A DNA stretch of 64,000 bases from Candidatus Wirthbacteria bacterium. GTDB taxonomy: Bacteria > Patescibacteriota > CG2-30-54-11. Location of the stretch: assembly GCA_903889905.1 (NCBI GenBank), contig CAISZI010000050.1, positions 45,294-109,293 on the forward strand, read 5' to 3'. Positions within the stretch are counted from its first letter, which is position 1. Every line of letters starts with the position of its first letter. Below the pieces are notes generated by a model. The model did not search any database. It was not told the origin of the DNA and was given only the letters and a program-made list of their open reading frames with translations. Shown here piece by piece: positions 2,215 to 52,463 of this stretch. Position numbers and translations under genes: made by a program.

Positions 2215-2616
2215 ATGCCCCGTCTCCTCGCTATTGACCTTGGCACGAAACGTACTGGAATTGCCATTACAGACGAACTTCAAATCAGTACCCGCCCACT
2301 ACCCCTCATTGCCCACCAATCGCAGCAGGAATTGCTTACGGCACTTGCGTTGCTTGTCAAACAGTATAAAATCACCACCGTCATTCTGGGGTTGCCCCTT
2401 AGCAGCGATGGCAGCGAAGGGCCACAAGCCAAGCTCACTCGCGACTTTGGCACAATCCTTCAAAACCAAAACCTGAGCGTTATCTACCATGACGAAAGCT
2501 TCAGTTCCCAGGACGCCGCATTGACTCAAAAGAAAAAAATCAACAAAAACAAACGTTCCCTTGATAGTATCGCCGCCAAGATTATTCTCGATGATTATCT
2601 GAAAAACCAACCATGA
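2215..2616 (+). CDS. ruvX: Putative pre-16S rRNA nuclease / Holliday-junction resolvase-like RuvX (YqgF)
   Basis: 'MPRLLAIDLGTKRTGIAITD' is the YqgF N-terminal signature. Classic ruvX-mltG gene order. Internal Met at 2215 chosen as start. Confidence 0.8.
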   Translation: MPRLLAIDLGTKRTGIAITDELQISTRPLPLIAHQSQQELLTALALLVKQYKITTVILGLPLSSDGSEGPQAKLTRDFGTILQNQNLSVIYHDESFSSQDAALTQKKKINKNKRSLDSIAAKIILDDYLKNQP

Positions 2617-3701
2617 GCAAACCCGATTCTGAAATGGACGTTTTATCTCCCCAAAAAAGCAAAGGCTGTTTTGCCATATTCATTGTCATTGTCCTGCTTC
2701 TGCTTGTTGTGACTGGCATTGGCGGTTTCGCGGCCTGGTCATACTACGACCATACGCTCAAAACTGCAGTCAATACCACCGCACAGTTCCAAACCTTCAC
2801 CATTGTCCAGGGAGAATCTGTCAAAGGCATTGCCAATAAACTTGAACAGGATAAATTGATCAACAATGCCCTGCTCTTTCGCATCGCTGCCAAACTGCAA
2901 AAAAAAGAAGCCGCTATCCAGGCTGGCGACTATGAAATCAGCGCCTCCCAAACCATGCAGGAGATCATCGACTCACTACAGCACGGCGAAGCCAAGGGCA
3001 TTCCCATCACCATTTCCCCGGGCTGGCGCATCGAAGAAGTCGCCCATTATTTGGCCAACCAACACCTGGTGAATGAAGCTGAATTCCTCGCCGCCGCCAA
3101 AGCCGCCAATTTTGATTACACCATGCTCGGGAGCTCAAACCCTTTTGGCAAACCCAAATCCGCTTCACTCGAAGGCTACCTCATCCCCGACACTTACCTC
3201 GTGCCCAACAAGCCGACAGTGCAAGATATCATGGTGCGCATCCTTAACAATTTTCAGGACCAGTACGATCAACACGTCAAAGAACTGATGTCCACCAGCA
3301 AATTGTCGCTGTTTGAAGTCCTGACTCTGGCCTCGATTGTCGAGAAAGAAGCTTCCAAATCCGATGACCGCAAAATGGTGGCCGGTATTTACCTCAACCG
3401 CCTCAATTACGGTATGGCGCTCGGTGCTGATCCGACCGTCGCCTACGCTCTGGGCAGCTGGAGCGCACCGCTTACCACCGACAGCCTCAAGATCAATTCG
3501 CCCTACAACACCCGCGTCAACCCTGGTCTTCCGCCCGGCCCCATCGACAGCCCATCCCTAAGCTCGATCCTGGCGGTATTGGAACCCACCTCCAGCAACT
3601 ACTTTTACTTCCTCGCCGATCGCAACGGCATCATGCGCTACGCCAAAACGCTCGCCGAACACACAGCCAACAAAGCGAAATACGGGTTAAGCGGAGAATA
3701 A
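2613..3701 (+). CDS. mltG: Endolytic murein transglycosylase MltG (YceG family)
   Basis: N-terminal TM anchor; 'YNTRVNPGLPPGPI' and 'YFYFLADRNG' are YceG/MltG motifs; 4-nt overlap with ruvX. Confidence 0.85.
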   Translation: MSKPDSEMDVLSPQKSKGCFAIFIVIVLLLLVVTGIGGFAAWSYYDHTLKTAVNTTAQFQTFTIVQGESVKGIANKLEQDKLINNALLFRIAAKLQKKEAAIQAGDYEISASQTMQEIIDSLQHGEAKGIPITISPGWRIEEVAHYLANQHLVNEAEFLAAAKAANFDYTMLGSSNPFGKPKSASLEGYLIPDTYLVPNKPTVQDIMVRILNNFQDQYDQHVKELMSTSKLSLFEVLTLASIVEKEASKSDDRKMVAGIYLNRLNYGMALGADPTVAYALGSWSAPLTTDSLKINSPYNTRVNPGLPPGPIDSPSLSSILAVLEPTSSNYFYFLADRNGIMRYAKTLAEHTANKAKYGLSGE

Positions 3702-3704
3702 AAA

Positions 3705-3727
3705 AATAACCCGGAACTTGGGTTATT
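3705..3727 (+). terminator. Terminator-like hairpin after mltG
   Basis: AATAACCC-ggaactt-GGGTTATT followed by a U-rich tract, 4 nt after the mltG stop. Confidence 0.4.
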
Positions 3728-3884
3728 TTCAGCTTACTCCAAACTCAACGCTTACTACTAAAAAACTTCTTCCTGGTCGGAATTTGCGAAAGTGTTAAAA
3801 CTGAATTCCGCAAAGATTAGCCCGACACTCTCACTTACGTCATTTATTCACACACACGATATCATTGTCTTTCTGGCAAAAAAC

Positions 3885-4097
3885 TCAAACTTTTTTTCTT
3901 GCCATTCCTATTAATACGCCAATCACTATTGCTCCAAAAAGTAACGGAGTTGATGGGAGTGTTGAATAACCTTTCACAATAGTGTCACCAATAGCAACGA
4001 GTACATACAAGACCATAGACACTACCGTAATTATGATGGCATTACGATAAGATTTTGCATTATTTTTCTGTTGATCCATAGCAAAACCTGCTTTCAC
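3885..4097 (-). CDS. Small hypothetical membrane protein (2 predicted TM)
   Basis: 70-aa ORF with two hydrophobic helices. No homolog recognised; could be spurious. Confidence 0.35.
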   Translation of the reverse strand: MKAGFAMDQQKNNAKSYRNAIIITVVSMVLYVLVAIGDTIVKGYSTLPSTPLLFGAIVIGVLIGMARKKV

Positions 4098-4368
4098 TGA
4101 TTATTTAAATCCTTTGTTTCGAGATGTTCGTCTGAAAAAAGTTTCGCGGTGCTCCGTGCGGGCGGAGGCACACGGAATGTCTCCATACTCAGCACTCATT
4201 ACTCGAAACTTCTTCCGCTACACGCCGAAGACTGGACTACGGGATTAAGAATGACTAAGTTCATGCCGTCAATAAGTCATTCTTAAGGATTCAAGTCCCA
4301 TTCCGTCCTGATGACAGGACGACAGGGACAAATTCGACTAAGGTTCGATGACTTACCAAGTCTTCATT

Positions 4369-4444
4369 TGGTCGGGGCGACAAGACTCGAACTTGCGGCC
4401 TCATGCACCCCATGCATGCGCGCTACCAACTGCGCCACGCCCCG
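4369..4444 (-). tRNA. tRNA-Pro (anticodon GGG)
   Basis: The reverse complement folds as a canonical cloverleaf. Acceptor CGGGGCG/CGCCCCG; D-arm GCGC-AGTTGGTA-GCGC; anticodon stem CATGC/GCATG with loop ATGGGGT (GGG at 34-36, G37); T-arm GCAAG-TTCGAGT-CTTGT; encoded CCA. Confidence 0.8.
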
Positions 4445-4672
4445 ACGACAAACAGCTCAGAACGTGTTGATTATAAAGAACCGAGGCCTTAGAAGTAAAG
4501 CAGTATTATAATTGCTCACTATTTTAGCCTCAAATAACTGCTTGTAATCCATTTCATTTCTCCTCATAATATCCACTTTGTTGGAACATTTATTTTTCAG
4601 GAAATCCTGATGCCGATCCGACCTCACTCCCTGAGCAGCTCTTTCTCAACGATGCGCGAACAAGGCCCATGA

Positions 4673-5788
4673 TTGATTAGGTTATTTGCTTGCAAAAACC
4701 TTACTCAATTAACTTTGCCAACCATGTCACCCAATCATGCCAATAAATCCCTCCCCTGTGGCTCTTTGCCTGAAGTTATCACGCCCTATCTCAAGCAGCT
4801 GATTGCCTCCACCGGTGGCCCCCAGGGCCCAATCGGCCTGCAGTTTGTGGCGCAACCAGACATGGAACAAGCCCACCAGGAAATGACCTCCGACCCCCTG
4901 CACGAAGACGAACACGAAGTGGCACCGGCGTTGATCTACAAATACCGCGGCGAAGTGGAACAAAACGGTAAAGTGACTCGCTACGGCCGCGTGCTGTGGA
5001 CGGTGACGCGTTTTTGTGGTTCCTACTGCCGTTTCTGCACACGTGGCCGGGAAGTTGGCTTGCCCGCTGGTACAACCATGGAATCGCACGCACGCATCAC
5101 GCAGGAACCGTTTCTGACTGAGGCTGAGATCAATCAGGTGTTTGAGTACATCAAATCCCATCCCGAGATCAATGAAGTGGTGCTCTCTGGCGGCGATCCT
5201 CTTAGCAGCCCCAGACCTTATCTCACCAAGATCGTCCAGGGATTGGCCAGCCTGCAACAAGCAGGTCATCTGGATGTCGTCCGTATTGGCACACGACTCC
5301 CGATCGTCAGTCCCCATGCCATGCAAGAGTGGCACTACGACCTGATCAGAACCCTGCGCAATCCCTATATTCTGCTGCACATCAACCACCCCGCCGAAGT
5401 GACCGCCGCGGTCATCGCTGTTGCCCAAAAGCTTCGCGAAACCAGTTTTGCCAGCCTGCTTTCGCAATCGGTTTTACTTCAAGGCGTCAACGACAAGACC
5501 GACACTCTCTACGAGCTGTTTAATCTGCTGCACAAACACGCTATCCGCCCCTACTACCTGTTCCAGAATGACGACGTTTACTGGGCCAAACACTTTACCG
5601 TCGCCCCTAAGCGCGCCATCGAGATCTGGAAAAGCCTGCGGCCACGCCTTTCCGGGCTCGCCGCCACCGCCCGTTTTGTCATTGACGTCGAGGATGGTTA
5701 CGGCAAAATTCCTGTCCCCGAAGGAGATTCCTGGCAAGTTGATCTCACCCACTTTCGCGACTTCAAGGGGCAAGTGCATTCCTGGTAG
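4673..5788 (+). CDS. KamA-family radical SAM aminomutase (lysine 2,3-aminomutase-like; KamA/EpmB family)
   Basis: 'CGSYCRFCTRG' is the KAM-type CxxxCxxC cluster (compare KamA CSMYCRHCTR); 'VLSGGDPL' and 'LLQGVND' are further family blocks. Start uncertain (alternative Met at 4724). Confidence 0.8.
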   Translation: MIRLFACKNLTQLTLPTMSPNHANKSLPCGSLPEVITPYLKQLIASTGGPQGPIGLQFVAQPDMEQAHQEMTSDPLHEDEHEVAPALIYKYRGEVEQNGKVTRYGRVLWTVTRFCGSYCRFCTRGREVGLPAGTTMESHARITQEPFLTEAEINQVFEYIKSHPEINEVVLSGGDPLSSPRPYLTKIVQGLASLQQAGHLDVVRIGTRLPIVSPHAMQEWHYDLIRTLRNPYILLHINHPAEVTAAVIAVAQKLRETSFASLLSQSVLLQGVNDKTDTLYELFNLLHKHAIRPYYLFQNDDVYWAKHFTVAPKRAIEIWKSLRPRLSGLAATARFVIDVEDGYGKIPVPEGDSWQVDLTHFRDFKGQVHSW

Positions 5789-5808
5789 ATCCAAAATCCC
5801 ATCTATCC

Positions 5809-5889
5809 GTCATTGCGAGCATTGCTACAAGGCGTGGCAATCTCTCTCCAATGCACTAGATTGCCACGTCGATAACTCCTCGCAATGAC
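5809..5889. repeat. REPIN-like element: inverted pair of REP motifs GTCATTGCGAG / CTCGCAATGAC with internal secondary palindrome
   Basis: Seen directly: GTCATTGCGAG at 5809-5819 and its reverse complement at 5879-5889. The interior has GCGTGGCAATCT/AGATTGCCACGT inverted. The same motif recurs elsewhere in the window. Confidence 0.65.
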
Positions 5890-6115
5890 AACAAATTCTC
5901 CCGTTGACACCCCAGCCGTATCTTGTATCATTGTTCTCACTCACTATCAAAAGGTACCAGATTGGATCCTGAACCTGACCCCAGCCGACCTCCAGGCTTT
6001 CTGACCCTACAACCCATATAGAATTTCCTGACCAGGCAAGGCCAATGAACATTGAACTTGTCTTTTTTTGTATCCATTTTCTCGCCACTTACAGCTTCAC
6101 AAGGAGCTCACCAAC

Positions 6116-7567
6116 ATGCCCAATGGGACCCCGGCAAACGGAAACGGCAAAATCGACACACCCGTTCCCAAAGTCAAACACATCTTTATCTCCAATATCC
6201 TCGAAGGAGCTTACAAAGGCTATCACGGCCTCACTAACCAGGAGCGCTCATATTGGACTTTATATGATACCGTCGACAGTAACCGTGTCCTGTTTTACAA
6301 CGGTGACGACAAGCTAGTCATCACCTCGGCGCCCATCCTGCCCGCCCACTTCGAATACTCGAAACAGCTCATGGGTTGGAAGAATGTTCACAACTACTAC
6401 CCACGTTTCCCGTCGCCATTTATTTGCGAAGATATAATGAGCCAGGAAAAATTCCGTATCCGCATCGAAGAAGTCATCAGAGCCAATCCGGGTATCAACC
6501 TGATTCCCTATCGCTCGACGCCGGAATTTGCAGAAATGGTCAACTACTTCCGCCGCAAAAAACTAGAGTTTGAAACGCCGGAATCCATGGATTCAAATAA
6601 CGAATTCGTTAATATTTATGCCCACTCCAAGCGCGGATTTAGGCACCTCTGGAATAAGGCTTTCCCGACGGGCTCATCACTTCAAATTGACCTTCCCTTG
6701 GGCTTTATTACCGGCAACCGCGACGAAGCCATCGAAGCGGCCTGGTGGTTCGCACAGCAGAAGAAGTCATTTGTGATCAAGTATAACCGCGGTATTCAGG
6801 GGATTGGCGTACTTATTCTTTATTATTCCAATCTGCCTGACACCAAACGTGCCTTTGTGCGCGAAATGCAGGATGAACTGCGCGACAAGATGTGGGACGA
6901 ACCTTCGATCATCGTCGAAGAACTGATTGATATCGACAAAAACAACATGGGTGGATCTCCCAGCATTGAGTTTTTCATTGACCAGTCTGGCCGTGTCCAT
7001 CCAACCTACGCTGGCGAACAAGTCATGGCCGATGACCGCAAAACCTTTCGCGGCATTTATATTAACCCCGAAATCATCAAGAACAAACACATCAAAACAG
7101 CTTTCAAAGCCGGCCACCTGTTTGGCAAAGAACTGGCCGACCTGGGCTATCGCGGTGTGTTTGACGTGGACCTGGTGGTTTCCAAAGACAATAAACTTTA
7201 TGCCGTGGAATCCAATCTGCGCCGTACCGGCGGAACGCATGTTCACGAAGCTGCTGTCGAATTGCTTGGTGCGGACTATACCAGCAAATACCACGTCTTG
7301 ATTGACGACATCCTGCTGCACGACGAAGCCCGCATCAATTACAAAAAAGCCATGGCGCTGCTGAGTGATATTTACTACAAACCCGAGTACAAATCGGGTG
7401 TTCTGATTGCCAACCCCGACATGCTGCAAGTCAATATCCTCAACATCCTGATCGTCACCCATGACGCCGAAGAAATGAAACGCCTGCGCGGTCTGATTAA
7501 ACGCCGCTTCAAGCAGGACATGCATTCCAGCAACGTGGTTTTGTTTGAGAACAAGGATGGTTTTTAG
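6116..7567 (+). CDS. ATP-grasp fold ligase, RimK-like ATP-binding motifs, paralog 1 (large, ~480 aa)
   Basis: 'KKSFVIKYNRGIQGIGVLIL' matches the ATP-grasp K/Gly-rich loop (RimK 'VVIKLLEGTQGIGVVL'). 'LYAVESNLRRTGG' matches the E-x-N Mg-binding block. AAGGAG RBS 9 nt upstream of ATG 6116. Confidence 0.6.
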   Translation: MPNGTPANGNGKIDTPVPKVKHIFISNILEGAYKGYHGLTNQERSYWTLYDTVDSNRVLFYNGDDKLVITSAPILPAHFEYSKQLMGWKNVHNYYPRFPSPFICEDIMSQEKFRIRIEEVIRANPGINLIPYRSTPEFAEMVNYFRRKKLEFETPESMDSNNEFVNIYAHSKRGFRHLWNKAFPTGSSLQIDLPLGFITGNRDEAIEAAWWFAQQKKSFVIKYNRGIQGIGVLILYYSNLPDTKRAFVREMQDELRDKMWDEPSIIVEELIDIDKNNMGGSPSIEFFIDQSGRVHPTYAGEQVMADDRKTFRGIYINPEIIKNKHIKTAFKAGHLFGKELADLGYRGVFDVDLVVSKDNKLYAVESNLRRTGGTHVHEAAVELLGADYTSKYHVLIDDILLHDEARINYKKAMALLSDIYYKPEYKSGVLIANPDMLQVNILNILIVTHDAEEMKRLRGLIKRRFKQDMHSSNVVLFENKDGF

Positions 7568-7619
7568 CGAGCGCCCAGGAATTGGATTTTATTTTATCCA
7601 AACAAACAGAGCCGCAACC

Positions 7620-9041
7620 ATGCGCAACGGCCAAAGCAACAACGACAAGATCACATTACCAATCCCGAAAGTCCGTCACTTGTTTGTCGCCAACAACCTC
7701 GAGGGATCGTACAAAAGCTACCAGAGCCTGCCGACCAAACAACGCCTCTACTGGACACTGTGGGACACGATTGAAGGCAACCGCTCGCTGTTTTATGACG
7801 GGGATGACAAAATTCTGATCACCTCATCTCCGATCAATCCCGCTCACCTCGAGCATACCAAACAGCTGATGGGCTGGCACAATGTCCACAACTATTACCC
7901 GCGCTTTCCGTCGCCTTCCATTTGCGAAGACATGTTTAGCCAGGAACGCTTCCGCGACCGGATCGAAGCGGTGATCAAGGCCAATCCCGGCATCCAGATC
8001 ATTCCCTACCGTGCGACGCCGGAATTTTATGAAATGCTCAATTACTTCAACCGCCAGAAGCTGGATTTCAAAACGCCGGAATCCATTCCTCCCGAACACG
8101 AATTTGTTACCATGTACGCCCACTGCAAGCGCGGCTTCAGGCATTTGTGGAACAAGGCGTTTCCCACAGGATCAGCGCTCAAAATTGATTTACCCACTGG
8201 TTTTATCACCGGCAACCGTGACGAAGCCATCGAAGCTGGCTGGTGGTTTGCGCAGCAAAAAAAATCCTTTGTAATCAAATACAATCGCGGCGCCTCGGGT
8301 GTGGGCGTATTGTTTATGCATTATTCCAGGCTTCCAGAAACCAAACGTGCCTTTTGTCGCGATTTGCAGGACCAGTTGCGTGACAAAATGTGGGACGAAC
8401 CCTCCATTATTGTAGAAGCCATGGTGGACATCGACCGCAAAGCCTATGGTGGCTCGCCCAGTATTGAAATCTACATTGATCAGGCCGGCCGGGTGCATCC
8501 AACTTATGGGGGCGAACAGATTTTTGGTGAAGACAACAAAACCTATATGGGATTTTATATCCATCCCGAAATCAACAAAAGCCACTACATCAAAACCGCG
8601 TTTGCAGCCGGCCGCTTGTTTGGCCGGGAACTTTCGGCCCTTGGTTATCGTGGTTTTTTTGACATTGATCTGGTCATTGCCAAAGACAAAAAACTCTACG
8701 CTGTGGAAGCCAACCTGCGCCGCAACGGCAGCACGCACATCAACGAAGCGGCCGAAGAATTACTGGGACGCAATTACACCCAACATTACCACGTCCTCTA
8801 TGAATCCATCCTGCTGGGTGAAGAAAATCCTATCCATTACAAAGACGCGATGGCCAAAGTTGAGGACATTTATTTCAAACACGACACCAAAACCGGTGTG
8901 ATCTTTATCAATGTGGATTTGATGCAATTGGGCATCCTCAACTACGTTTTGATCGCACCCAATGCAACCGAAATCAAACGCCTGCGCAGCAGCATCAAAC
9001 GCCGTTTCAAACCAGTCAAACCAAGGATTGACCGCTTATAA
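7620..9041 (+). CDS. ATP-grasp fold ligase, paralog 2 (tandem duplicate of 6116..7567, ~60% identity)
   Basis: Colinear with paralog 1 throughout ('KKSFVIKYNRGASGVGVLFM', 'LYAVEANLRRNGSTH'). Start set at MRNGQSNN (7620) by alignment with paralog 1 rather than the ORF-track Met at 7545. Confidence 0.6.
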   Translation: MRNGQSNNDKITLPIPKVRHLFVANNLEGSYKSYQSLPTKQRLYWTLWDTIEGNRSLFYDGDDKILITSSPINPAHLEHTKQLMGWHNVHNYYPRFPSPSICEDMFSQERFRDRIEAVIKANPGIQIIPYRATPEFYEMLNYFNRQKLDFKTPESIPPEHEFVTMYAHCKRGFRHLWNKAFPTGSALKIDLPTGFITGNRDEAIEAGWWFAQQKKSFVIKYNRGASGVGVLFMHYSRLPETKRAFCRDLQDQLRDKMWDEPSIIVEAMVDIDRKAYGGSPSIEIYIDQAGRVHPTYGGEQIFGEDNKTYMGFYIHPEINKSHYIKTAFAAGRLFGRELSALGYRGFFDIDLVIAKDKKLYAVEANLRRNGSTHINEAAEELLGRNYTQHYHVLYESILLGEENPIHYKDAMAKVEDIYFKHDTKTGVIFINVDLMQLGILNYVLIAPNATEIKRLRSSIKRRFKPVKPRIDRL

Positions 9042-9061
9042 TTTTATTCCGAAGGATCCGT

Positions 9062-9508
9062 ATGGCTGCACCAATCAAACTCCATCTCGAACACAACTGG
9101 CCAGTGTATGTTGGCTGGTCCCAACAACTCAATTGTCGCGGCGTTTTTGCCCTGCGTGACATTCAGCCTGGTGAATTGGTTGAACCGTGCCCACTAATCC
9201 TGGTTCCCTTCAAAAACGAAACTGACTTTGCCAACAGTACGCCAACCAATAGCCTGGTGGACAATTATTATTATGACTGGACAGCCGAGGAATGGTGCCT
9301 GCCACTAGGCTATGCCATGCTTTACAACCATTCCTACCAGCCCAACATGAAGTATGAACGCGACTTTGAGCAATCTCTGCTCAAATACGTGGCCATCAAA
9401 ACTATTCACCAAGGCGACGAGCTTACTGTTAACTACAATGGCGACCCCAACGACCAGAAACCGATCGAATCCTGGTTCCACGAATATGGTGGACGGAAAA
9501 TTATCTAG
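9062..9508 (+). CDS. SET-domain protein (putative lysine N-methyltransferase)
   Basis: 'GRGVFALRDIQPGELV' (N-SET GxG), 'MLYNHSYQPN' (NHSCxPN-type block) and 'GDELTVNY' (ELxxxY post-block) are the SET signatures. It follows the two ATP-grasp genes in the same orientation. Confidence 0.7.
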   Translation: MAAPIKLHLEHNWPVYVGWSQQLNCRGVFALRDIQPGELVEPCPLILVPFKNETDFANSTPTNSLVDNYYYDWTAEEWCLPLGYAMLYNHSYQPNMKYERDFEQSLLKYVAIKTIHQGDELTVNYNGDPNDQKPIESWFHEYGGRKII

Positions 9509-9528
9509 ACAACCAAAAATCGTTCTCT

Positions 9529-11469
9529 TTATTGAATCGTCACCATGATCTGGCCACTAACCTGGGTGTTAAGATCCGTAGCTACCACATACACCGTCCC
9601 TTTTTTATTGCCCGCAGTAAAGAGGCCCGCAGGGGATATCGAACCACCAGTCATCGGAGACACTGTCCACAACATCTGCGTTTCGCTTACAATACGATTG
9701 CCGATGTCATAGGCCGTCGCATAAAGCTGTAATTTACCATTGACTTTGATCGTTGCTTGCTTGGGTTGGATCACGATACGCGCAACCGTAAGCGGGATCG
9801 TTCCATAATCGTCACTCGACAATCCCAATTGCCCACCGCGGTTTACCGGATAGACAATATAGTTATAACCCAAACCTGGTTTGGCCGCGGTGTCGACATA
9901 AACATTTTTACCAGCCTGGAAATTTGACATGACAATACTGATACCGCTTCCATCCAACAACATGCGTTCAACATGATAACCGGATGGCATGATCGGGGCA
10001 CTAAGCGGTGCATCCCAAGTCAGAGTAATCCCTTTTTTGCTGGGCGTGGTGACAAAATTAGTAACCGGCATCAGCGAGTAATCATAACTATAAGGTTTCT
10101 CAGGCTGCAGCTGCGGCCCCGTTGTATTGCGCAAATAGGGTCCTACTCCACCTGAAGGAGTAATGCAGCTGACATAGTAAATATAATCTTTGTTCTTCAT
10201 GGCTGAACTGTCGGTATAGTTCAAATTGCGTGTAAAGTTGGTCATCAGGCGCATATTGCTGTAATTGATGTCCGACCGCTCAACATAATAACCAACGCAA
10301 GTCTGAACCTGAATGACACTTGAGCCATAATTCATCCAAGTAGGATAGGGCATATTCCAGGTCAACGTGTAGCTGGTTGCTGCGTTCTTGCGCACCGCTA
10401 AATTCTGGATCCATGGCAGCTTGGGATCGATCGTGGGCGGAAATGAAGGCATCGTGAGGGGTACTGTCACTGGTGGCGGAATAGGCGGCAGGACCGGGGT
10501 CGTAACTGGTGGCGGAGCGACTACTGGAATCATCCCTGAAGCCGATGTCGCCGCCGAACTCACCTCTCCCAGCGCGTCAACGCTGCGTACCCAATAGGTA
10601 TAAGCAACTCCGGGAACCGCCAATGAATCGATTATGCCCATGGATTGCGTCCAACTGCTGATCGTTCTGACATCATTGGGATTATTGTTGTTGCGGCGAA
10701 TGACATGAAAAGCCACTACTTGATGATTAGGGTCAACCGGTGGCAGCCAACGGACAATGATTGAGTAAGTCGTTGCTTCGGCACGAGTTTCGCCAGGCAT
10801 CGGGAGCAAAGGATTGACAATTGGAATGGTAGCCGGAAAAACGGCCACACTGATTGGCGGCAGCTTGGGAAAAGTCACCGGATTCGTCAGCGGCAACTCA
10901 ACTTGCATACCATAGGCTGTGCTGCAGACTTTGCCTTGGGCATCAAAACTGCGGATAGTGTAGGTATAAGGCACACCACGAATCAACGTATTGTCAAAAT
11001 AGCCAAACTGTCGGGTATAAGGAGTCATCACCGTCTGCTGATCCTGGGATCTACTCATGGCACGCGATACATAAAACCCGACCACCTGATGCGTTGGATC
11101 TGGTTCCAGGCTCCAGGCAAGCGCTATACCATCATTGGCCAGCCAATTTACTGGGGAAGCAAGCCCTGGCAAATCCTGACGCACCTGGAAGGGAGGAACC
11201 GGATACTTAATTGGACCACTGGCAGGTGGCAGCAGTTCAAAACTGATGGGCTGTCCTGTAGGCCCCGGAATGGGTGTGGTAATCGGAACCCCTGTTGAAG
11301 CGTGGCTAAACCCACGCTCCTGAATATACCGCTGCACGACAATGGTTCCTACCACCAGGCAAGAGAGTGCCAGCATCGCAATTCCCAACGCTAGGTGTGG
11401 TTTGCTTTCAGGCACAGTCGCAGACGATTTGACCAACTCGTGCTGCTGCTTTTTGTTTTTTTCCAACAT
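9529..11469 (-). CDS. Large cell-surface protein with N-terminal membrane anchor, fibronectin-III-like repeats and C-terminal bacterial Ig-like (Big_2) domain
   Basis: N-terminal TM 'LALGIAMLALSCLVVGTIVV'; Pro-rich linkers; repeated ~90-aa units ('HQVVGFYVSRA.../HQVVAFHVIRR...'); C-terminal 'ATIKVNGKLQLYATAYD...SISPAGLFTAGNKKGTVYVVAT' Big_2-like. Confidence 0.55.
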   Translation of the reverse strand: MLEKNKKQQHELVKSSATVPESKPHLALGIAMLALSCLVVGTIVVQRYIQERGFSHASTGVPITTPIPGPTGQPISFELLPPASGPIKYPVPPFQVRQDLPGLASPVNWLANDGIALAWSLEPDPTHQVVGFYVSRAMSRSQDQQTVMTPYTRQFGYFDNTLIRGVPYTYTIRSFDAQGKVCSTAYGMQVELPLTNPVTFPKLPPISVAVFPATIPIVNPLLPMPGETRAEATTYSIIVRWLPPVDPNHQVVAFHVIRRNNNNPNDVRTISSWTQSMGIIDSLAVPGVAYTYWVRSVDALGEVSSAATSASGMIPVVAPPPVTTPVLPPIPPPVTVPLTMPSFPPTIDPKLPWIQNLAVRKNAATSYTLTWNMPYPTWMNYGSSVIQVQTCVGYYVERSDINYSNMRLMTNFTRNLNYTDSSAMKNKDYIYYVSCITPSGGVGPYLRNTTGPQLQPEKPYSYDYSLMPVTNFVTTPSKKGITLTWDAPLSAPIMPSGYHVERMLLDGSGISIVMSNFQAGKNVYVDTAAKPGLGYNYIVYPVNRGGQLGLSSDDYGTIPLTVARIVIQPKQATIKVNGKLQLYATAYDIGNRIVSETQMLWTVSPMTGGSISPAGLFTAGNKKGTVYVVATDLNTQVSGQIMVTIQ

Positions 11470-11580
11470 TTATTTTCCCTTTTTTTATAAACCATCGTAC
11501 TAGTATATCATAAAAAAACACCCCAGTTAAAAATATCTGTTATAATAACTTGATTACCTGTTAAAAAAGAAACCTTCAGC

Positions 11581-12411
11581 GTGCGTAAAATTTTTCAACA
11601 TTTGCTTTGGCCCCTGATCGTCTGTTGCTGTTTTGTGCCAAAATTTCTACACTGGCCGCACGACGTGATGCAGGGCAGCCTGATCCTGCTGGTTTGCGTT
11701 TACATGGCATTGCGCAACTGGGTCTTCCCCAAATGGCTGCATGGCAACGAACTGCGCGTGCTCCGGCTGGATGTAATTTTTGCTTCTGCCCTAGTAATTT
11801 TGTTTACCAATAGCCTGGGCGGCGTGCTGAGCGAGTTCTTTTTCCTATATTATTTCCTCTCGATTGGCTCCGCGCTGCTGCTCGGCGCTGGCCCTTCGGT
11901 GGGATTGATTCTGACGGTCATTGCCTGTTATCTGCCTGATTTCCCACGCACCAGTGCCAACCAGCTACTGTTTGGATCATCCGATGTGGTGCCCTTTTGC
12001 CTGAGGCTGCTATTTTTGCTGGGCGTGGTACCAATCAGCGCTTATTTCGCCAAATCCTACCTGCTGTCACAAAAACTGCAAAAAAAGATTTTCATCCTGA
12101 CCAGCCAGAAGAAAAAATACGAAGATGCCCTGGAATCAATTCAGGACGACGTCATTGCCTGGGGTGCCTTCCGCATCCGCAGCGCCCTCAGTACCACCAA
12201 AAACTACCTGGACGCCGTCATGCCCAAAGTCGATGATCCAACCCGGGAACCAGTACCCAGTGACCTTCAAGCCCAGTATATCCAGGTCGCCTTTGCCAAA
12301 AACGAAGAAGCCCTGCACGCGGTCAAGGAACTCGAGCTGCGTTTTTCGTCTGATCCCATTCGGGACATGATGGCTGTGGAAAAACTGCCCAAAGATAACG
12401 AAAACGCGTAA
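11581..12411 (+). CDS. Hypothetical polytopic membrane protein (GTG start)
   Basis: Multiple hydrophobic helices, no recognised family. Confidence 0.45.
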   Translation: MRKIFQHLLWPLIVCCCFVPKFLHWPHDVMQGSLILLVCVYMALRNWVFPKWLHGNELRVLRLDVIFASALVILFTNSLGGVLSEFFFLYYFLSIGSALLLGAGPSVGLILTVIACYLPDFPRTSANQLLFGSSDVVPFCLRLLFLLGVVPISAYFAKSYLLSQKLQKKIFILTSQKKKYEDALESIQDDVIAWGAFRIRSALSTTKNYLDAVMPKVDDPTREPVPSDLQAQYIQVAFAKNEEALHAVKELELRFSSDPIRDMMAVEKLPKDNENA

Positions 12412-14191: not shown

Positions 14192-14379
14192 GTCATTGCG
14201 AGGTCGTCTGCGACCGCGGCAATCTAGCTGTTTTTGTCATTCCGAGGGAACTGAGGCCTTAGTCCACTTTAGGGGGAATCCTTACTACTAGAGAACTCCA
14301 ACGTTTGGTGGAACGACGTGGTGAAGATTCTTCGCTTCCTCTTTCGCAAGGCTTCGGAAGACAAGCCGCTCAGAATGAC
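14192..14379. repeat. Composite REP-family repeat region (GTCATTGCGAGG, GTCATTCCGAGGG direct copies and inverted CTCAGAATGAC)
   Basis: Seen directly at 14192-14203, 14236-14248 and 14369-14379. The internal 'CGACCGCGGCAATCT' matches the interior of the 5809 and 52417 elements. Confidence 0.55.
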
Positions 14380-20105: not shown

Positions 20106-21134
20106 TTACGGTTGTGTCCCCCTGGCTTTGCTGAGCGGCAGATCCTTTTCTATAAACTGCACCACCACGTTGCTCAAAATCTTGCCACCAAATACTGTAA
20201 AGTGCACCCCATCGTCCTGGCGTGCTTTTTGCTTGAGCCCAGTCTCATCGGGGACAATGGCGCTATAACGGTCATTCACCGCAAACCGGCTCCAGGTATC
20301 AACATATTCCACATTGGGAAACAGCTGTGCTTCGCTCTGGAATATCCGGTCCATGCGCGTGAACTTATTATAAAAATCCGTGGTGCCCGGTATTGGCTGA
20401 CCCACCCAATAAACCGTATCCACCACCGGGGAAACCAATTTGAGAAAGTCATCTACCCGTTTCTGGTAAACCGCGTCCCAGCCGGCATTATCCAGGTGCA
20501 CGGCTTTGCCACTGTCATCCAGAATACCCTGGCCGTCGTTGGCGCCAAACATCACCACCAGTACCTGCGGGTGGAAAGTCGCGATCAGCTGCAGCGCATA
20601 ATCGTTCCAGTTGAAATAATCGCGACGATTGAGGCCAGTGGAATATTTTCCTGCCCGTTTGACGCTGTCCACGTTGGGTAATGTCAGCAGTTGCCCTTCC
20701 AGCGCCGGTCCAAAGCCTTCGAGGATAATCGAGTCGCCAATGATCAAAATACTGTAGGGAGCTTGCAGTTTGGGTTTGACAAGGTTGGTCGTGTTCACCA
20801 GCGGCAGACTTTGCGGCTTGGCGGAAGTGGTGGAAGTCGTTGGCGCGTTGATCGGTGCAGTATTGTCAGCCAGTGGCGCTGGCGCTGTGTCGTCAGCTGC
20901 GATGAGACTTTCTGTTTGTTTGAGCTTTTCCCACTGCCGGTTTTCCCAGTGTTTAAATGTGCCCCACGGTGATTTGGCGATAAAAGTTCGCAGGCCTCCA
21001 ACGGGTAATCCCACATCCTGTGCAATCGCCAAAGAACCCGGCAGCTCAAACACAAACAAGATGCCAAATACCGCCAGCGCCAATTTGATCGATTTCCAAT
21101 CTTTGGACATAGGCCTAAAAAGAGAAATAAACAA
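20106..21134 (-). CDS. Membrane-anchored SGNH/GDSL-like hydrolase/acyltransferase partner (AlgX/PatB/DltD-like role)
   Basis: N-terminal TM; 'ILIIGDSIILEG' (GDS block) and 'DDGVHFT' (DxxH block); overlaps MBOAT gene by 20 nt. Confidence 0.5.
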   Translation of the reverse strand: MFISLFRPMSKDWKSIKLALAVFGILFVFELPGSLAIAQDVGLPVGGLRTFIAKSPWGTFKHWENRQWEKLKQTESLIAADDTAPAPLADNTAPINAPTTSTTSAKPQSLPLVNTTNLVKPKLQAPYSILIIGDSIILEGFGPALEGQLLTLPNVDSVKRAGKYSTGLNRRDYFNWNDYALQLIATFHPQVLVVMFGANDGQGILDDSGKAVHLDNAGWDAVYQKRVDDFLKLVSPVVDTVYWVGQPIPGTTDFYNKFTRMDRIFQSEAQLFPNVEYVDTWSRFAVNDRYSAIVPDETGLKQKARQDDGVHFTVFGGKILSNVVVQFIEKDLPLSKARGTQP

Positions 21135-22590
21135 ATGGAGGCACCAAATCCGGCTTGAGCCCGACGATCACGGCCAGACAAACGACCACGACCACGACTT
21201 TCGCACGAAAACTGCTGACATTCAAAATCGCTTCCAACCAAAAACCCACCCGGTGACCGATTAAGTTAAATAAGACAATCAGACCGAGGACAATAAGCAA
21301 AACCGGTTGAACCAGGGTGACGGTGTGGATTTTGGCAGTGGTCAGCCCGCCATAATACATCAGCGCTGAATCGAGCGTGGGTGAATTAAAGAAAACCCAA
21401 AGCAGACTGACGGTGGTAAACGTACCAACCCAGCTCAGCGTCCGCCGCACGACATTGTCCTGCCAGAATTTGAGCCAGAGCGAGAGCCGATGGTTGATTG
21501 CACTCGCTACCCCAAGGCCAAAACCCCACAGGATAAAGGGCCAGCCCGCGCCGTGCCACAGCCCCGACAGTGTCATGGTGGCAATCACATTGAAATAGCG
21601 GCGTGCGGGTTTGATCGGGGCGTAAGTGTCTGTCACAGAACCATCGAGGTGTTTTGCGGTGACTTTGGGCCCACGGCTGCCACCCAATGGAATGTAGACA
21701 TAATCCCGAAACCATGACGACAGCGAGATGTGCCAGCGTTTCCAGAATTCGCTTAAATTCAAACTGGCATAGGGCCGGTCAAAGTTGGCGGCGGTATTGA
21801 TGCCGAGCAGATTGGAAATGGCAATGGCCAGATCGGAATAGCCACTGAAATCCACATACAAATAACAGGCATACGCCAGCACCGCGATCCACAAATCCAG
21901 ACTGGAATAATTCTGCGGCGTGGCAAACGGACCCTGGATGAAATTGTACAAAAAGCTCGACAGCACCAGTTTCTTCATCAGCCCCGAAATAATCAGCACA
22001 ATCACCCGCGCTTCATTGTAAACAAAACCGCTGCGACCATTTAAATCGTCATAAAACGGCTGTGGCCGCGCGATCGGTCCTGAGGCAATGTGCGGGAAAA
22101 AAGTGATGTAGTTGGCATAATCCAGGAACGACGGGAGCACGATTTTGCCATGGTAACTGTCAACGAGGTGAGCGATGGTACGAAAGGTGTAAAACGACAA
22201 ACCCACCGGCGCCAAGAGCGCCAGCAGGTTGATATCCACGCTGAGGTGGAAGACATGCAATAGAGAATACAGACTGTCGATGAAAAAGTTGAAATACTTA
22301 AAAATGCCAAGCTGGACCAGGTTCGCCACAATCCCGATGACCAGGAAAAGTTTACGGCTGTTTGTCCTTCGTAGCTTTAGCGAAGAAGGACTGGCTTCCA
22401 GCACAAAGTAGTAATTGACGAACACCGACGCCAACAACAGCAACAGGAAAGTCGTACTCCAAAGGCGGTAGAACGCCAAGCTCATGATCATGAGCCAAAG
22501 TTTGTACCACACGTTGCGCTGACGCAGCAGAACCACGCCACCAAAGGCTATTGCGAAAAACCCGACAAAGTTAAGCGTGGCAAAGGACAT
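21115..22590 (-). CDS. MBOAT family membrane-bound O-acyltransferase (AlgI/DltB/PatA-like)
   Basis: 'WKRWHISLSSWFRDYVYIPLGGSRG' is the MBOAT catalytic-His block (AlgI/DltB 'WHISLSxWxRDYxYIPLGG'); >10 TM. Confidence 0.75.
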   Translation of the reverse strand: MSFATLNFVGFFAIAFGGVVLLRQRNVWYKLWLMIMSLAFYRLWSTTFLLLLLASVFVNYYFVLEASPSSLKLRRTNSRKLFLVIGIVANLVQLGIFKYFNFFIDSLYSLLHVFHLSVDINLLALLAPVGLSFYTFRTIAHLVDSYHGKIVLPSFLDYANYITFFPHIASGPIARPQPFYDDLNGRSGFVYNEARVIVLIISGLMKKLVLSSFLYNFIQGPFATPQNYSSLDLWIAVLAYACYLYVDFSGYSDLAIAISNLLGINTAANFDRPYASLNLSEFWKRWHISLSSWFRDYVYIPLGGSRGPKVTAKHLDGSVTDTYAPIKPARRYFNVIATMTLSGLWHGAGWPFILWGFGLGVASAINHRLSLWLKFWQDNVVRRTLSWVGTFTTVSLLWVFFNSPTLDSALMYYGGLTTAKIHTVTLVQPVLLIVLGLIVLFNLIGHRVGFWLEAILNVSSFRAKVVVVVVCLAVIVGLKPDLVPPFVYFSF

Positions 22591-22725
22591 ACGTTAAGTT
22601 TCTAGTCTTAAAAGTCGCTGAACCGACTTCCGTCATCATAGCAAAAGAGACATAAGTTTTACATAGATTAATGGCTGATTTCCTATTACAATACAAGTGT
22701 TCATTCCTTACAGACAGGAGGACTC

Positions 22726-27543: not shown

Positions 27544-28398
27544 ATGCGCCAAAACAAATCCCAAATTGCATCCCTGCTCGCCGTTTTTTGCAGCATGCTG
27601 CTCACCATCCTCAAACTGTCCGCTGGCATACTTTCCAACAGCCAGTCACTGATCTCTGACGGGCTCAATTCCCTGCTCGACATTGTCTCGGGAACCATCA
27701 TCTTTGTTGCCATTCGTGTGGGTGGTAAAAAAGCCGACGACAAACATCCCTTTGGCCACAACCGCGCCGAACCCATTGCCGCACTTGTGATTGCCATCCT
27801 GGCTGGCATTCTCAGCTTCGAAATCATCCGCGACGGCATCACCTCCATACTCCACCGCACGCCAGTTGAAGTCACCAATTTTACGTTTTTTGTGGTTTTT
27901 TTCTCGGTTGGCCTCAAAACCATCATGATGCTTGCCTTCCGTCGTATCGGCCGCGCCAGCAACAGCCCTTCGCTCAAAGCTGCCGCGATTGACTTTCGCA
28001 ATGACATTTTCGCTTCGAGCATGGTCATCGTAGCCGTAATCACCGCCAAACTCGGCCTCTCGGTACTCGACTCCTATATTGCCATATTGCTTGGACTCTG
28101 GATCGCCTACTCAGGTTTCAACATCGCACAGGAAAACCTCAAATACCTGATGGGCGAGTCACCGGATGGTGAACTTCTAAAGTTGGTACACGACAAAGCA
28201 TCAGGCATCCTGGGCGTCAAACAAATCCATGCTGTCAAAGCCCAGTACCTGGGTTCGGAAGTTGAAGTGGTGGTAGATATCGAAATTGACAAACGACTCA
28301 CATTGCAGCACGCCCACGAAATCGGCGAACACGTCAAGCAAGCGCTCGAGGAAACCCCTGAAATCTGCCACGCCTTTGTGCATATCGACCCGGTCTAA
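27544..28398 (+). CDS. Cation diffusion facilitator (CDF) family metal efflux transporter
   Basis: 'SDGLNSLLDIVSG', 'HPFGHNRAEPIAAL', 6 TM plus C-terminal cytoplasmic domain, typical of FieF/CzcD. Confidence 0.8.
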   Translation: MRQNKSQIASLLAVFCSMLLTILKLSAGILSNSQSLISDGLNSLLDIVSGTIIFVAIRVGGKKADDKHPFGHNRAEPIAALVIAILAGILSFEIIRDGITSILHRTPVEVTNFTFFVVFFSVGLKTIMMLAFRRIGRASNSPSLKAAAIDFRNDIFASSMVIVAVITAKLGLSVLDSYIAILLGLWIAYSGFNIAQENLKYLMGESPDGELLKLVHDKASGILGVKQIHAVKAQYLGSEVEVVVDIEIDKRLTLQHAHEIGEHVKQALEETPEICHAFVHIDPV

Positions 28399-52416: not shown

Positions 52417-52463
52417 CTGTCAATGAGAGATTGCCGCGGTCGATGACTTCCTCGCAATGACAG
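52417..52463. repeat. REPIN-like element (GTCAATGAGAG ... CCTCGCAATGAC) of the same family as 5809..5889
   Basis: Inverted REP motifs with the shared interior AGATTGCCGCGGTCG. Confidence 0.55.

Follow-up and report, generated by a model that had tools for sequence, protein, structure and literature searches.

A 64,000-nt stretch of the genome of a Candidatus Wirthbacteria bacterium (hereafter, the window) contains four open reading frames (ORFs), which were confirmed between positions 4673 and 9508, all on the plus strand, and which encode a KamA-family aminomutase, two ATP-grasp proteins (AGa and AGb), and a SET-domain protein (Table 1). The question raised by this locus is whether the four products act in one pathway and what such a pathway would make. 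An initial annotation had proposed that a beta-amino acid is produced, ligated in an ATP-dependent manner, and finally N-methylated. The analysis confirmed the underlying observation and partly supported the interpretation: the logic of an aminomutase coupled to ligases held, and the labelling of the ligases as RimK-like and the methylation step failed. The reading favoured here, with a probability of about one in two as judged from sequence comparisons and a structural model, is that the window holds one version of a recurrent gene module of the candidate phyla radiation (CPR; Patescibacteria), comprising a KamA-family aminomutase and ATP-grasp amide ligases, which would make beta-lysine and then use ATP to link it through an amide bond into a small peptide or an amide.

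In the proposed pathway, the aminomutase would convert L-lysine to beta-lysine, as suggested by its conserved active-site residues, and AGa and AGb would each use ATP to turn a carboxylate into an acyl phosphate, which would then react with an amine, as suggested by their fold and by their characterised relatives PGM1, BesA, and LdmS. After one ligation, or two in succession, the result would be a small dipeptide, tripeptide, or amide that contains beta-lysine; a solute, a cell-wall building block, and a peptide modification are candidates for it. The aminomutase and ligase proteins are small and soluble-looking.

The aminomutase ORF can be read from a TTG codon at 4673 to 5788, and an identical 354-amino-acid product beginning at the ATG at 4724 is present in a public protein collection; this ATG is the likely start. 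The protein matched Pfam Radical_SAM with 35.5 bits and six KamA-type NCBIfam models, namely AblA_like_2 (188 bits), AblA (184 bits), EpmB (174 bits), the KamA subfamily (161 bits), and the glutamate and arginine aminomutases (159 and 154 bits, respectively). All six scores lay below the curated cut-offs and were nearly equal across the AblA, EpmB, glutamate, and arginine models. The match to TIGR00238/KamA expected by the initial annotation was found as a family match that did not reach the curated cut-off (161.3 versus 199.2 bits), and the EpmB model TIGR03821 gave 174.4 versus 369.3 bits. On these scores, the protein is assigned to a divergent KamA-family clade and is not an equivalog of any named enzyme. 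With a threshold of E<=1e-40, the clade comprised at least 588 clusters, the usual identity being 55-62%, and its named members are almost all from CPR bacteria.

Among solved structures, the sole match was lysine 2,3-aminomutase (LAM; KamA/AblA) of Clostridium subterminale (PDB 2A5H, E=1e-38), with which the protein shares the radical S-adenosylmethionine (radical-SAM) and pyridoxal 5'-phosphate (PLP) architecture. Its CGSYCRFCTRG block, an instance of the CxxxCxxC motif, aligned with C125/C129/C132 of 2A5H, and its GYGK, containing K328, aligned with the PLP-binding lysine of LAM in GGGK337. Equivalents of R134, D293 (in QND), and D330 (in VID) were also kept, and all of these residues were invariant in 18 CPR homologs. 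We take R134 of LAM to bind the carboxylate of the substrate, and D293 and D330 to bind its epsilon-ammonium group; the two aspartates are replaced in glutamate 2,3-aminomutase. Because the equivalents of R134, D293, and D330 are conserved, a lysine-type substrate is the best supported, and conversion of lysine to beta-lysine would be expected. The original call of a KamA-type 2,3-aminomutase, made from CGSYCRFCTRG, was thus borne out by family scores of 154-188 bits, the match to 2A5H, and the lysine-type active-site residues. The protein differs from LAM in that it lacks the zinc site (C268 being replaced by K) and the C-terminal Cys-rich domain, ending soon after the K337 region, and in that it carries two insertions and scores below the cut-offs.

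AGa and AGb were 65-66% identical and each other's nearest relative, and the DNA of the region repeats with a period of 1498 nt. Both features fit a lineage-specific tandem duplication in situ, so the duplication proposed before stands, with an identity higher than the 60% or so given for it. AGb is the more diverged copy, being less similar than AGa to almost all family members compared and equally similar to two of the most distant ones. By sequence, the evidence for an ATP-grasp fold was weak and consisted of matches to Pfam ATP-grasp_4 and to the NCBIfam models BesA (41 bits versus a cut-off of 750) and LdmS (26 bits versus a cut-off of 475) for AGa, and to Pfam PreAtp-grasp for AGb (PF18604, Pre-ATP-grasp; 19.9 bits versus a cut-off of 27.5). 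PF18604 did not match AGa, and several homologs carry a precomputed match to it. Searches of the PDB by sequence returned 8yi6, 8ynd, 3wvq, and 7r8p for AGa.

Together with these weak matches, an AlphaFold (AF2) model of AGa, built from 21 homologs (predicted local distance difference test score, pLDDT, 88.8; predicted template modelling score, pTM, 0.87), upheld the ATP-grasp fold predicted for the proteins of about 480 amino acids. The top whole-length Foldseek matches of the model were 8YND, PGM1 (3WVQ/3WVR), and BesA, with template modelling (TM) scores of 0.67-0.81 over 431-495 aligned columns; the matches to 8ynd, 3wvq/3wvr, and 8yi6 had E values of 1e-22 to 1e-24 at an identity of only 16-18%. 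Weaker fold matches followed to LdmS, PurK, biotin carboxylases, and PylC. K222 (in KYNRG), E365, N367, R369, and G372 were invariant in 21 ligase sequences including AGa and AGb, and AGb departs from the family alignment at none of its invariant columns. The motif noted earlier as E-x-N-x-R-x-GG holds in its residues and has one more position before the glycines, reading E-x-N-x-R-x-x-G-G. In ATP-grasp enzymes, residues corresponding to K222, the E-x-N pair, and the Arg-Gly pair have roles with ATP and Mg2+.

PGM1 (the pheganomycin peptide ligase), 8YND (a Streptomyces ATP-grasp peptide ligase), BesA, and LdmS are ATP-dependent ligases that join an amino-acid carboxylate to an amine, and the invariant residues of AGa and AGb fit this activity. 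By the model and the alignment, AGa and AGb are ATP-grasp amide ligases that look active; they are of the PGM1/BesA type and form a different subfamily from the characterised members. They were described at first as RimK-like, a label that was not sustained: no match to Pfam RimK (PF08443) was obtained at E<=0.01, no RimK was present among the top 50 PDB fold matches, and the nearest proteins by sequence and fold were PGM1, 8YND, BesA, and LdmS. RimK, the glutamate ligase of ribosomal protein S6, shares the ATP-grasp superfamily, whereas the size and the N-terminal domain of AGa and AGb follow the PGM1 type. The ligase family comprised 122 clusters at 90% identity in an indexed search and 251 clusters (50% identity) at E<=1e-30 among the 1.84 billion searched; its named relatives are almost all from CPR/Patescibacteria, and AGa and AGb belong to a subtype designated AG3.

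The surroundings of the ligases differ from those of PGM1 and BesA in that no nonribosomal peptide synthetase, polyketide synthase, or amidinotransferase context and no recognisable precursor peptide was seen here. Nothing conserved that could be a precursor was found in the gap between the aminomutase and AGa genes (5788-6116) or beside the ligase homologs, where very short precursors would be missed. Neighbour clusters of about 100 amino acids at the ligase loci were read as antisense artefacts because they lie on the minus strand, the examples shown being inside ligase genes. A phylogenomic study of graspetide ATP-grasp enzymes noted CPR branches of the graspetide type, to which PGM1 is only distantly related (PMC8939145).

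The recurrence of the genes was analysed in 22 genome loci and 9 further loci with ligase homologs, in 80 metagenome loci and 6 further loci with aminomutase homologs (74 distinct), and in three loci with SET orthologs. The set of aminomutase, two ligases, and SET was found nowhere else in the approximately 115 related loci; of the co-occurrence that had been anticipated for the four genes, the pairing of aminomutase and ligase was recovered. An ATP-grasp gene lay within 4 kb of the aminomutase gene in 21 of the 74 distinct loci, and in 11 of the 38 that extend 1.5 kb or more to each side. The most conserved neighbour was a Ddl-like ATP-grasp protein of about 360 amino acids (20 loci, 31 copies, 30 on the same strand, and 21 directly adjacent), followed by a PGM1-like family that neighbour clustering placed in 8 loci. 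The Ddl-like partners carry Pfam Dala_Dala_lig_C, score 85-180 bits against the NCBIfam Ddl cut-off of 243, match only Ddl/VanA-type ligases in the PDB, and give faint matches to an archaeal pseudomurein ATP-grasp model. They fall into two main subtypes, one of which is always directly upstream of the aminomutase gene.

In most of the other CPR genomes sampled, two Ddl-like ATP-grasp enzymes sit by the aminomutase in the place of AGa and AGb, and an aminomutase with two ligases is a frequent pattern among the loci. The gene orders observed were Ddl-KamA-Ddl (L032, L043, and L046), Ddl-Ddl-KamA (L057, L062, L077, and L110), Ddl-KamA-AG (L038 and L041), overlapping AG-KamA with a ligase of the AG3 subtype (L005), AG..Ddl-KamA (L112), and KamA-AG-AG in the present window. 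A Ddl-like gene also directly precedes an AG3-type ligase gene in L016 and L020, and lies 1.2 kb upstream of one in L025, these loci having no aminomutase gene. Aminomutase, Ddl-like, and PGM1-like genes are thus found in recurrent, order-variable, and often overlapping adjacencies across CPR lineages, and such variation in order speaks for functional coupling rather than for synteny by inheritance. The names of the homologs, which include WWE3, Wirthbacteria, Saccharibacteria, Roizmanbacteria, and Peregrinibacteria, place the source of the window in CPR/Patescibacteria.

Several further observations concern these loci. The commonest CPR context of the aminomutase gene is one in which two divergent Ddl paralogs, of the two subtypes, flank or precede it (L032 4941-8114, with overlapping reading frames in the array; L062 5849-9047; L046 6629-10164). 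In several loci, a gene for a protein of about 200-220 amino acids lies 3' of the aminomutase gene (L005 10539-11147 and L034 7197-7868); the product in L005 has a weak TPR match below the Pfam cut-off, that in L034 has no Pfam match, and a small cluster of neighbours, from 3 loci, is made up of homologs of the L005 gene, which may encode an accessory partner. One CPR lineage (L004, L008, L013-L015, and L017, e.g., L013 5601-11377; also L112) has three tandem PGM1-like genes, AG1-AG2-AG3, with 22-39% mutual identity, transcribed divergently from genes for an M17 leucyl aminopeptidase and a CBS-domain protein; a Ddl-like gene precedes the triplet in some versions, and L112 also has an aminomutase gene close by. 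This array looks like a multi-ligase peptide assembly line. The M17 aminopeptidase, the CBS protein, and ClpB were considered as partners of the triplet and rejected, the block being conserved only in these loci; since they represent one close lineage, in which the AG1 copies compared are 78-86% identical, the synteny of the triplet was not used as functional evidence. Neither a Ddl-like partner nor an M17 peptidase was found elsewhere in the 64-kb window.

Within the window, the aminomutase gene is separated from the AGa gene by 328 nt, as compared with 52 nt between the AGa and AGb genes and 20 nt between the AGb and SET genes. The same-strand array described as tight, 6116-9508, was confirmed by the latter two gaps and does not include the aminomutase gene. 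An AAGGAG lies 8 nt ahead of the ATG of AGa, and a Shine-Dalgarno-like GAAGGA precedes the SET gene. Just past the aminomutase stop codon, the sequence folds into a hairpin of -37.7 kcal/mol (z = -7.6; 0 of 200 shuffles were as good), and a predicted promoter beyond it agrees with 11 of 12 positions of a sigma-70-like consensus, which is the best site in 3600-11700 and a consensus match only. Sequence matching the hairpin arm, GTCATTGCGAG, occurs 7 times in the window versus 1.3 expected. The palindromic element to which it belongs, with arms GTCATTGCGAG/CTCGCAATGAC, is mostly intergenic and recurs at approximately 14192-14246 and at 52451-52461, with weaker matches at 27995 and 56134; the other two copies fold no better than shuffled sequence. 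The hairpin may act as a terminator or may be an inserted repeat, and in the latter case a repeat element may have come to lie between the aminomutase and AGa genes.

The gap bears on the possibility that the adjacency is coincidental here, the aminomutase being a separate transcription unit with a role of its own, such as the supply of free beta-lysine to serve as a solute or as an intermediate of catabolism, and the AGa-AGb-SET operon being unrelated to it. Such a separation would agree with the 328-nt gap, its hairpin, and its promoter match, and with the distribution of the genes, most AG3 loci being without an aminomutase and most aminomutase loci without AG3. On the other side, about 21 distinct loci show aminomutase and ATP-grasp genes next to each other, with frame overlaps and differing order, AG3 itself being the ligase in L005; for the handful of ATP-grasp genes in each small genome, this rate is inferred, and not computed, to be far above chance. 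With these arguments taken together, a chance arrangement is considered unlikely.

The SET-domain assignment of the 148-amino-acid protein was confirmed by Pfam SET (PF00856; 52.5 bits versus a cut-off of 22.4). Its nearest solved structures are Schizosaccharomyces pombe Set7 and PBCV-1 vSET, and like these and other small bacterial and archaeal SET proteins it is about 150 amino acids long and has the NHS motif (in YNHS) and a C-terminal Tyr (in ELTVNY). Only about 12 close orthologs were found (51-65% identity; the named one is from candidate division WWE3), and they have no conserved neighbours. SET homologs were absent from all of the approximately 115 aminomutase or ligase loci (phmmer, E<=0.01 or better), and the three loci with SET orthologs (L118-L120) contain unrelated neighbours, with neither aminomutase nor ligase. 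The SET protein was accordingly rejected as a member of the module: although its gene probably shares a transcript with the ligase genes here, the protein is a lineage-specific neighbour, not a conserved partner or pathway component.

These data bear directly on the full four-gene pathway of the initial annotation, in which a beta-amino acid would undergo two ligations and N-methylation by the SET enzyme, leading to a solute, an oligomer, or a protein adduct of methylated beta-lysine. The tight same-strand arrangement of the AGa, AGb, and SET genes, with GAAGGA ahead of the last, and the catalytic-type motifs kept by the SET protein agree with it. The comparative data do not: the absence of SET from the other aminomutase and ligase loci leaves methylation as a pathway step with no comparative support, the SET orthologs stand apart from both partners in all three of their loci, and about 12 close SET orthologs are opposed to hundreds of aminomutase homologs. 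The four-gene pathway is therefore regarded as very improbable.

The known partners of KamA enzymes are EpmA, the GNAT protein AblB, and lysine-fermentation genes, whereas here the aminomutase is accompanied by ATP-grasp ligases; the absence of EpmA and GNAT partners stated by the initial annotation was supported, and no lysine-fermentation genes accompany the aminomutase either. A rival explanation is that one or both ligases replace EpmA and put beta-lysine on a lysine or a terminus of elongation factor P (EF-P) or a ribosomal protein, the SET enzyme perhaps methylating the target. The aminomutase, short at 354 amino acids and with K in place of C268, resembles EpmB (YjeK) in having no counterpart of the zinc-binding C-terminal region found in clostridial LAM, and the EpmB and AblA_like_2 models score as well as AblA. 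SET enzymes act on protein lysines. In addition, PGM1-type ligases use the amine of a peptide as the acceptor for a non-proteinogenic acid (PMC8939145). Against such a modification, an EF-P-like loop motif was absent from the window and from 118 loci in a crude pattern test, no class II synthetase-like or EF-P family was present among the conserved neighbours, and SET is not conserved with the module; moreover, two to four different ligases recur together, a pattern that is better fitted by stepwise peptide assembly. Modification of a protein is thus distinctly unlikely.

The Ddl-like partners suggest another product, a beta-lysine dipeptide or side chain serving as a building block of peptidoglycan. 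Parallels exist in the enterococcal aspartate racemase and ATP-grasp D-aspartate ligase, which supply cross-bridges, and in Ddl/VanA, which make the terminus of the stem peptide. The commonest partners of the aminomutase are Ddl-family paralogs, and the faint matches to the archaeal pseudomurein ATP-grasp model point in the same direction, as do an MltG/YceG gene upstream in the window and YkuD, VanW, and S66 LD-carboxypeptidase genes near the aminomutase gene in L036. Such cell-wall neighbours are not conserved across the loci, however, and the scores of the Ddl-like partners, 85-180 bits, fall well short of the Ddl cut-off of 243. The module showed neither a Mur ligase gene nor one of the Fem type, and we know of no peptidoglycan that contains beta-lysine, which also counts against this possibility. 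A role in the cell wall is therefore judged improbable.

The favoured reading, synthesis of beta-lysine followed by amide ligation, has precedents in its logic. In pyrrolysine biosynthesis, the radical-SAM enzyme PylB rearranges lysine to a non-proteinogenic amino acid and the ATP-grasp ligase PylC joins the product to an amine, so that the pairing of a radical-SAM lysine mutase with an ATP-grasp ligase is not without precedent. The likeness is one of logic and not of membership: PylB is neither a KamA-family nor a PLP enzyme, PylC is a distant structural match to AGa, and no equivalent of PylD was seen here. The enterococcal racemase-ligase pair and tailoring ligases of the BesA/PGM1 type are further precedents. 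The aminomutase-ligase module is thus a variant of a known biosynthetic logic in poorly studied bacteria.

Several points weigh against this reading. Approximately 70% of the adequately flanked aminomutase loci have no ligase within 4 kb, and ligases of the AG3 type mostly occur singly or within AG1-AG2-AG3 triplets, with no aminomutase nearby; a dependence of the ligases on the aminomutase, implied by the earlier pathway, does not hold for a family that mostly lacks an aminomutase beside it. The substrate could differ from lysine, since the aminomutase falls below every curated NCBIfam cut-off, and the aminomutase and AGa genes may not be co-transcribed because the hairpin and the promoter-like site separate them. 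Neither biochemistry nor a published description was found for the aminomutase and ligase subfamilies or for their pairing in CPR/Patescibacteria.

The remainder of the window is ordinary chromosomal DNA. The tRNA-Pro gene, the sole RNA gene found in the 64-kb window, was considered as the border of an island and dropped; there was no shift in composition, and no integrase domain or long flanking repeat was found in the genes and region examined. A gene on the opposite strand converges on the SET gene and closes the array; its product of 646 amino acids, with an N-terminal membrane anchor, fibronectin type III (fn3) repeats, and proline-rich linkers, is probably a surface protein. Other genes in the window encode ABC-2 transporters, a histidine kinase, RNase Y, a MiaB-like enzyme, ThrRS, a Wzy-like protein, topoisomerase I, and an adjoining MBOAT (membrane O-acyltransferase) and DUF459/SGNH-like pair that resembles polysaccharide or cell-wall O-acylation systems.

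Table 1. Coordinates of the four genes, the elements between them, and neighbouring features in the window.
Feature	Position	Strand	Remarks
KamA-family radical-SAM/PLP 2,3-aminomutase-like gene	4724-5788	+	354 aa; ORF reaches upstream to TTG 4673
Palindromic hairpin	5809-5889	+	RNA fold; copy of a short repeated element
Predicted sigma-70-like promoter, TTGACA-16-TATCAT	5904-5931	+	consensus match only
ATP-grasp ligase AGa, PGM1/BesA-like, subtype AG3	6116-7567	+	483 aa
ATP-grasp ligase AGb	7620-9041	+	473 aa; tandem paralog of AGa
Minimal SET-domain methyltransferase	9062-9508	+	148 aa
MltG/YceG gene	2613-3701		upstream of the aminomutase gene
Hydrophobic ORF	3885-4097	-	70 aa; lies between the tRNA gene and mltG; possible small membrane protein
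tRNA-Pro (anticodon GGG)	4369-4444	-	280 nt upstream of the aminomutase gene, divergent
fn3-repeat gene	9529-11469	-	646 aa
MBOAT and DUF459/SGNH-like genes	20109-22593	-	adjoining pair

Beta-lysine is familiar as a solute, an antibiotic building block, and a modifier of EF-P; to our knowledge, it is not known as a substrate of an ATP-grasp ligase. A wider interpretation, which is speculative and rather unlikely, would be that of a conserved CPR-specific pathway in which a dedicated beta-lysine synthase feeds at least two interchangeable Ddl-like or PGM1-like ligases. The resulting beta-lysine peptide would have a core role, as a new peptidoglycan constituent, a polyamine or thiol-like small molecule, or an EpmA-independent modification of a translation factor, and the SET protein would have been recruited in the present genome for an additional tailoring step. 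Because CPR genomes are tiny and have little biosynthetic capacity, a module that is kept across many of their lineages, and that includes an oxygen-sensitive enzyme and ATP-consuming ligases, likely matters to the cell. The identity of its product would give functions to several poorly annotated families, namely the aminomutase clade, the two Ddl-like clades, and the PGM1-like clades, and could uncover new cell-envelope or small-molecule chemistry in an uncultured group of phyla.

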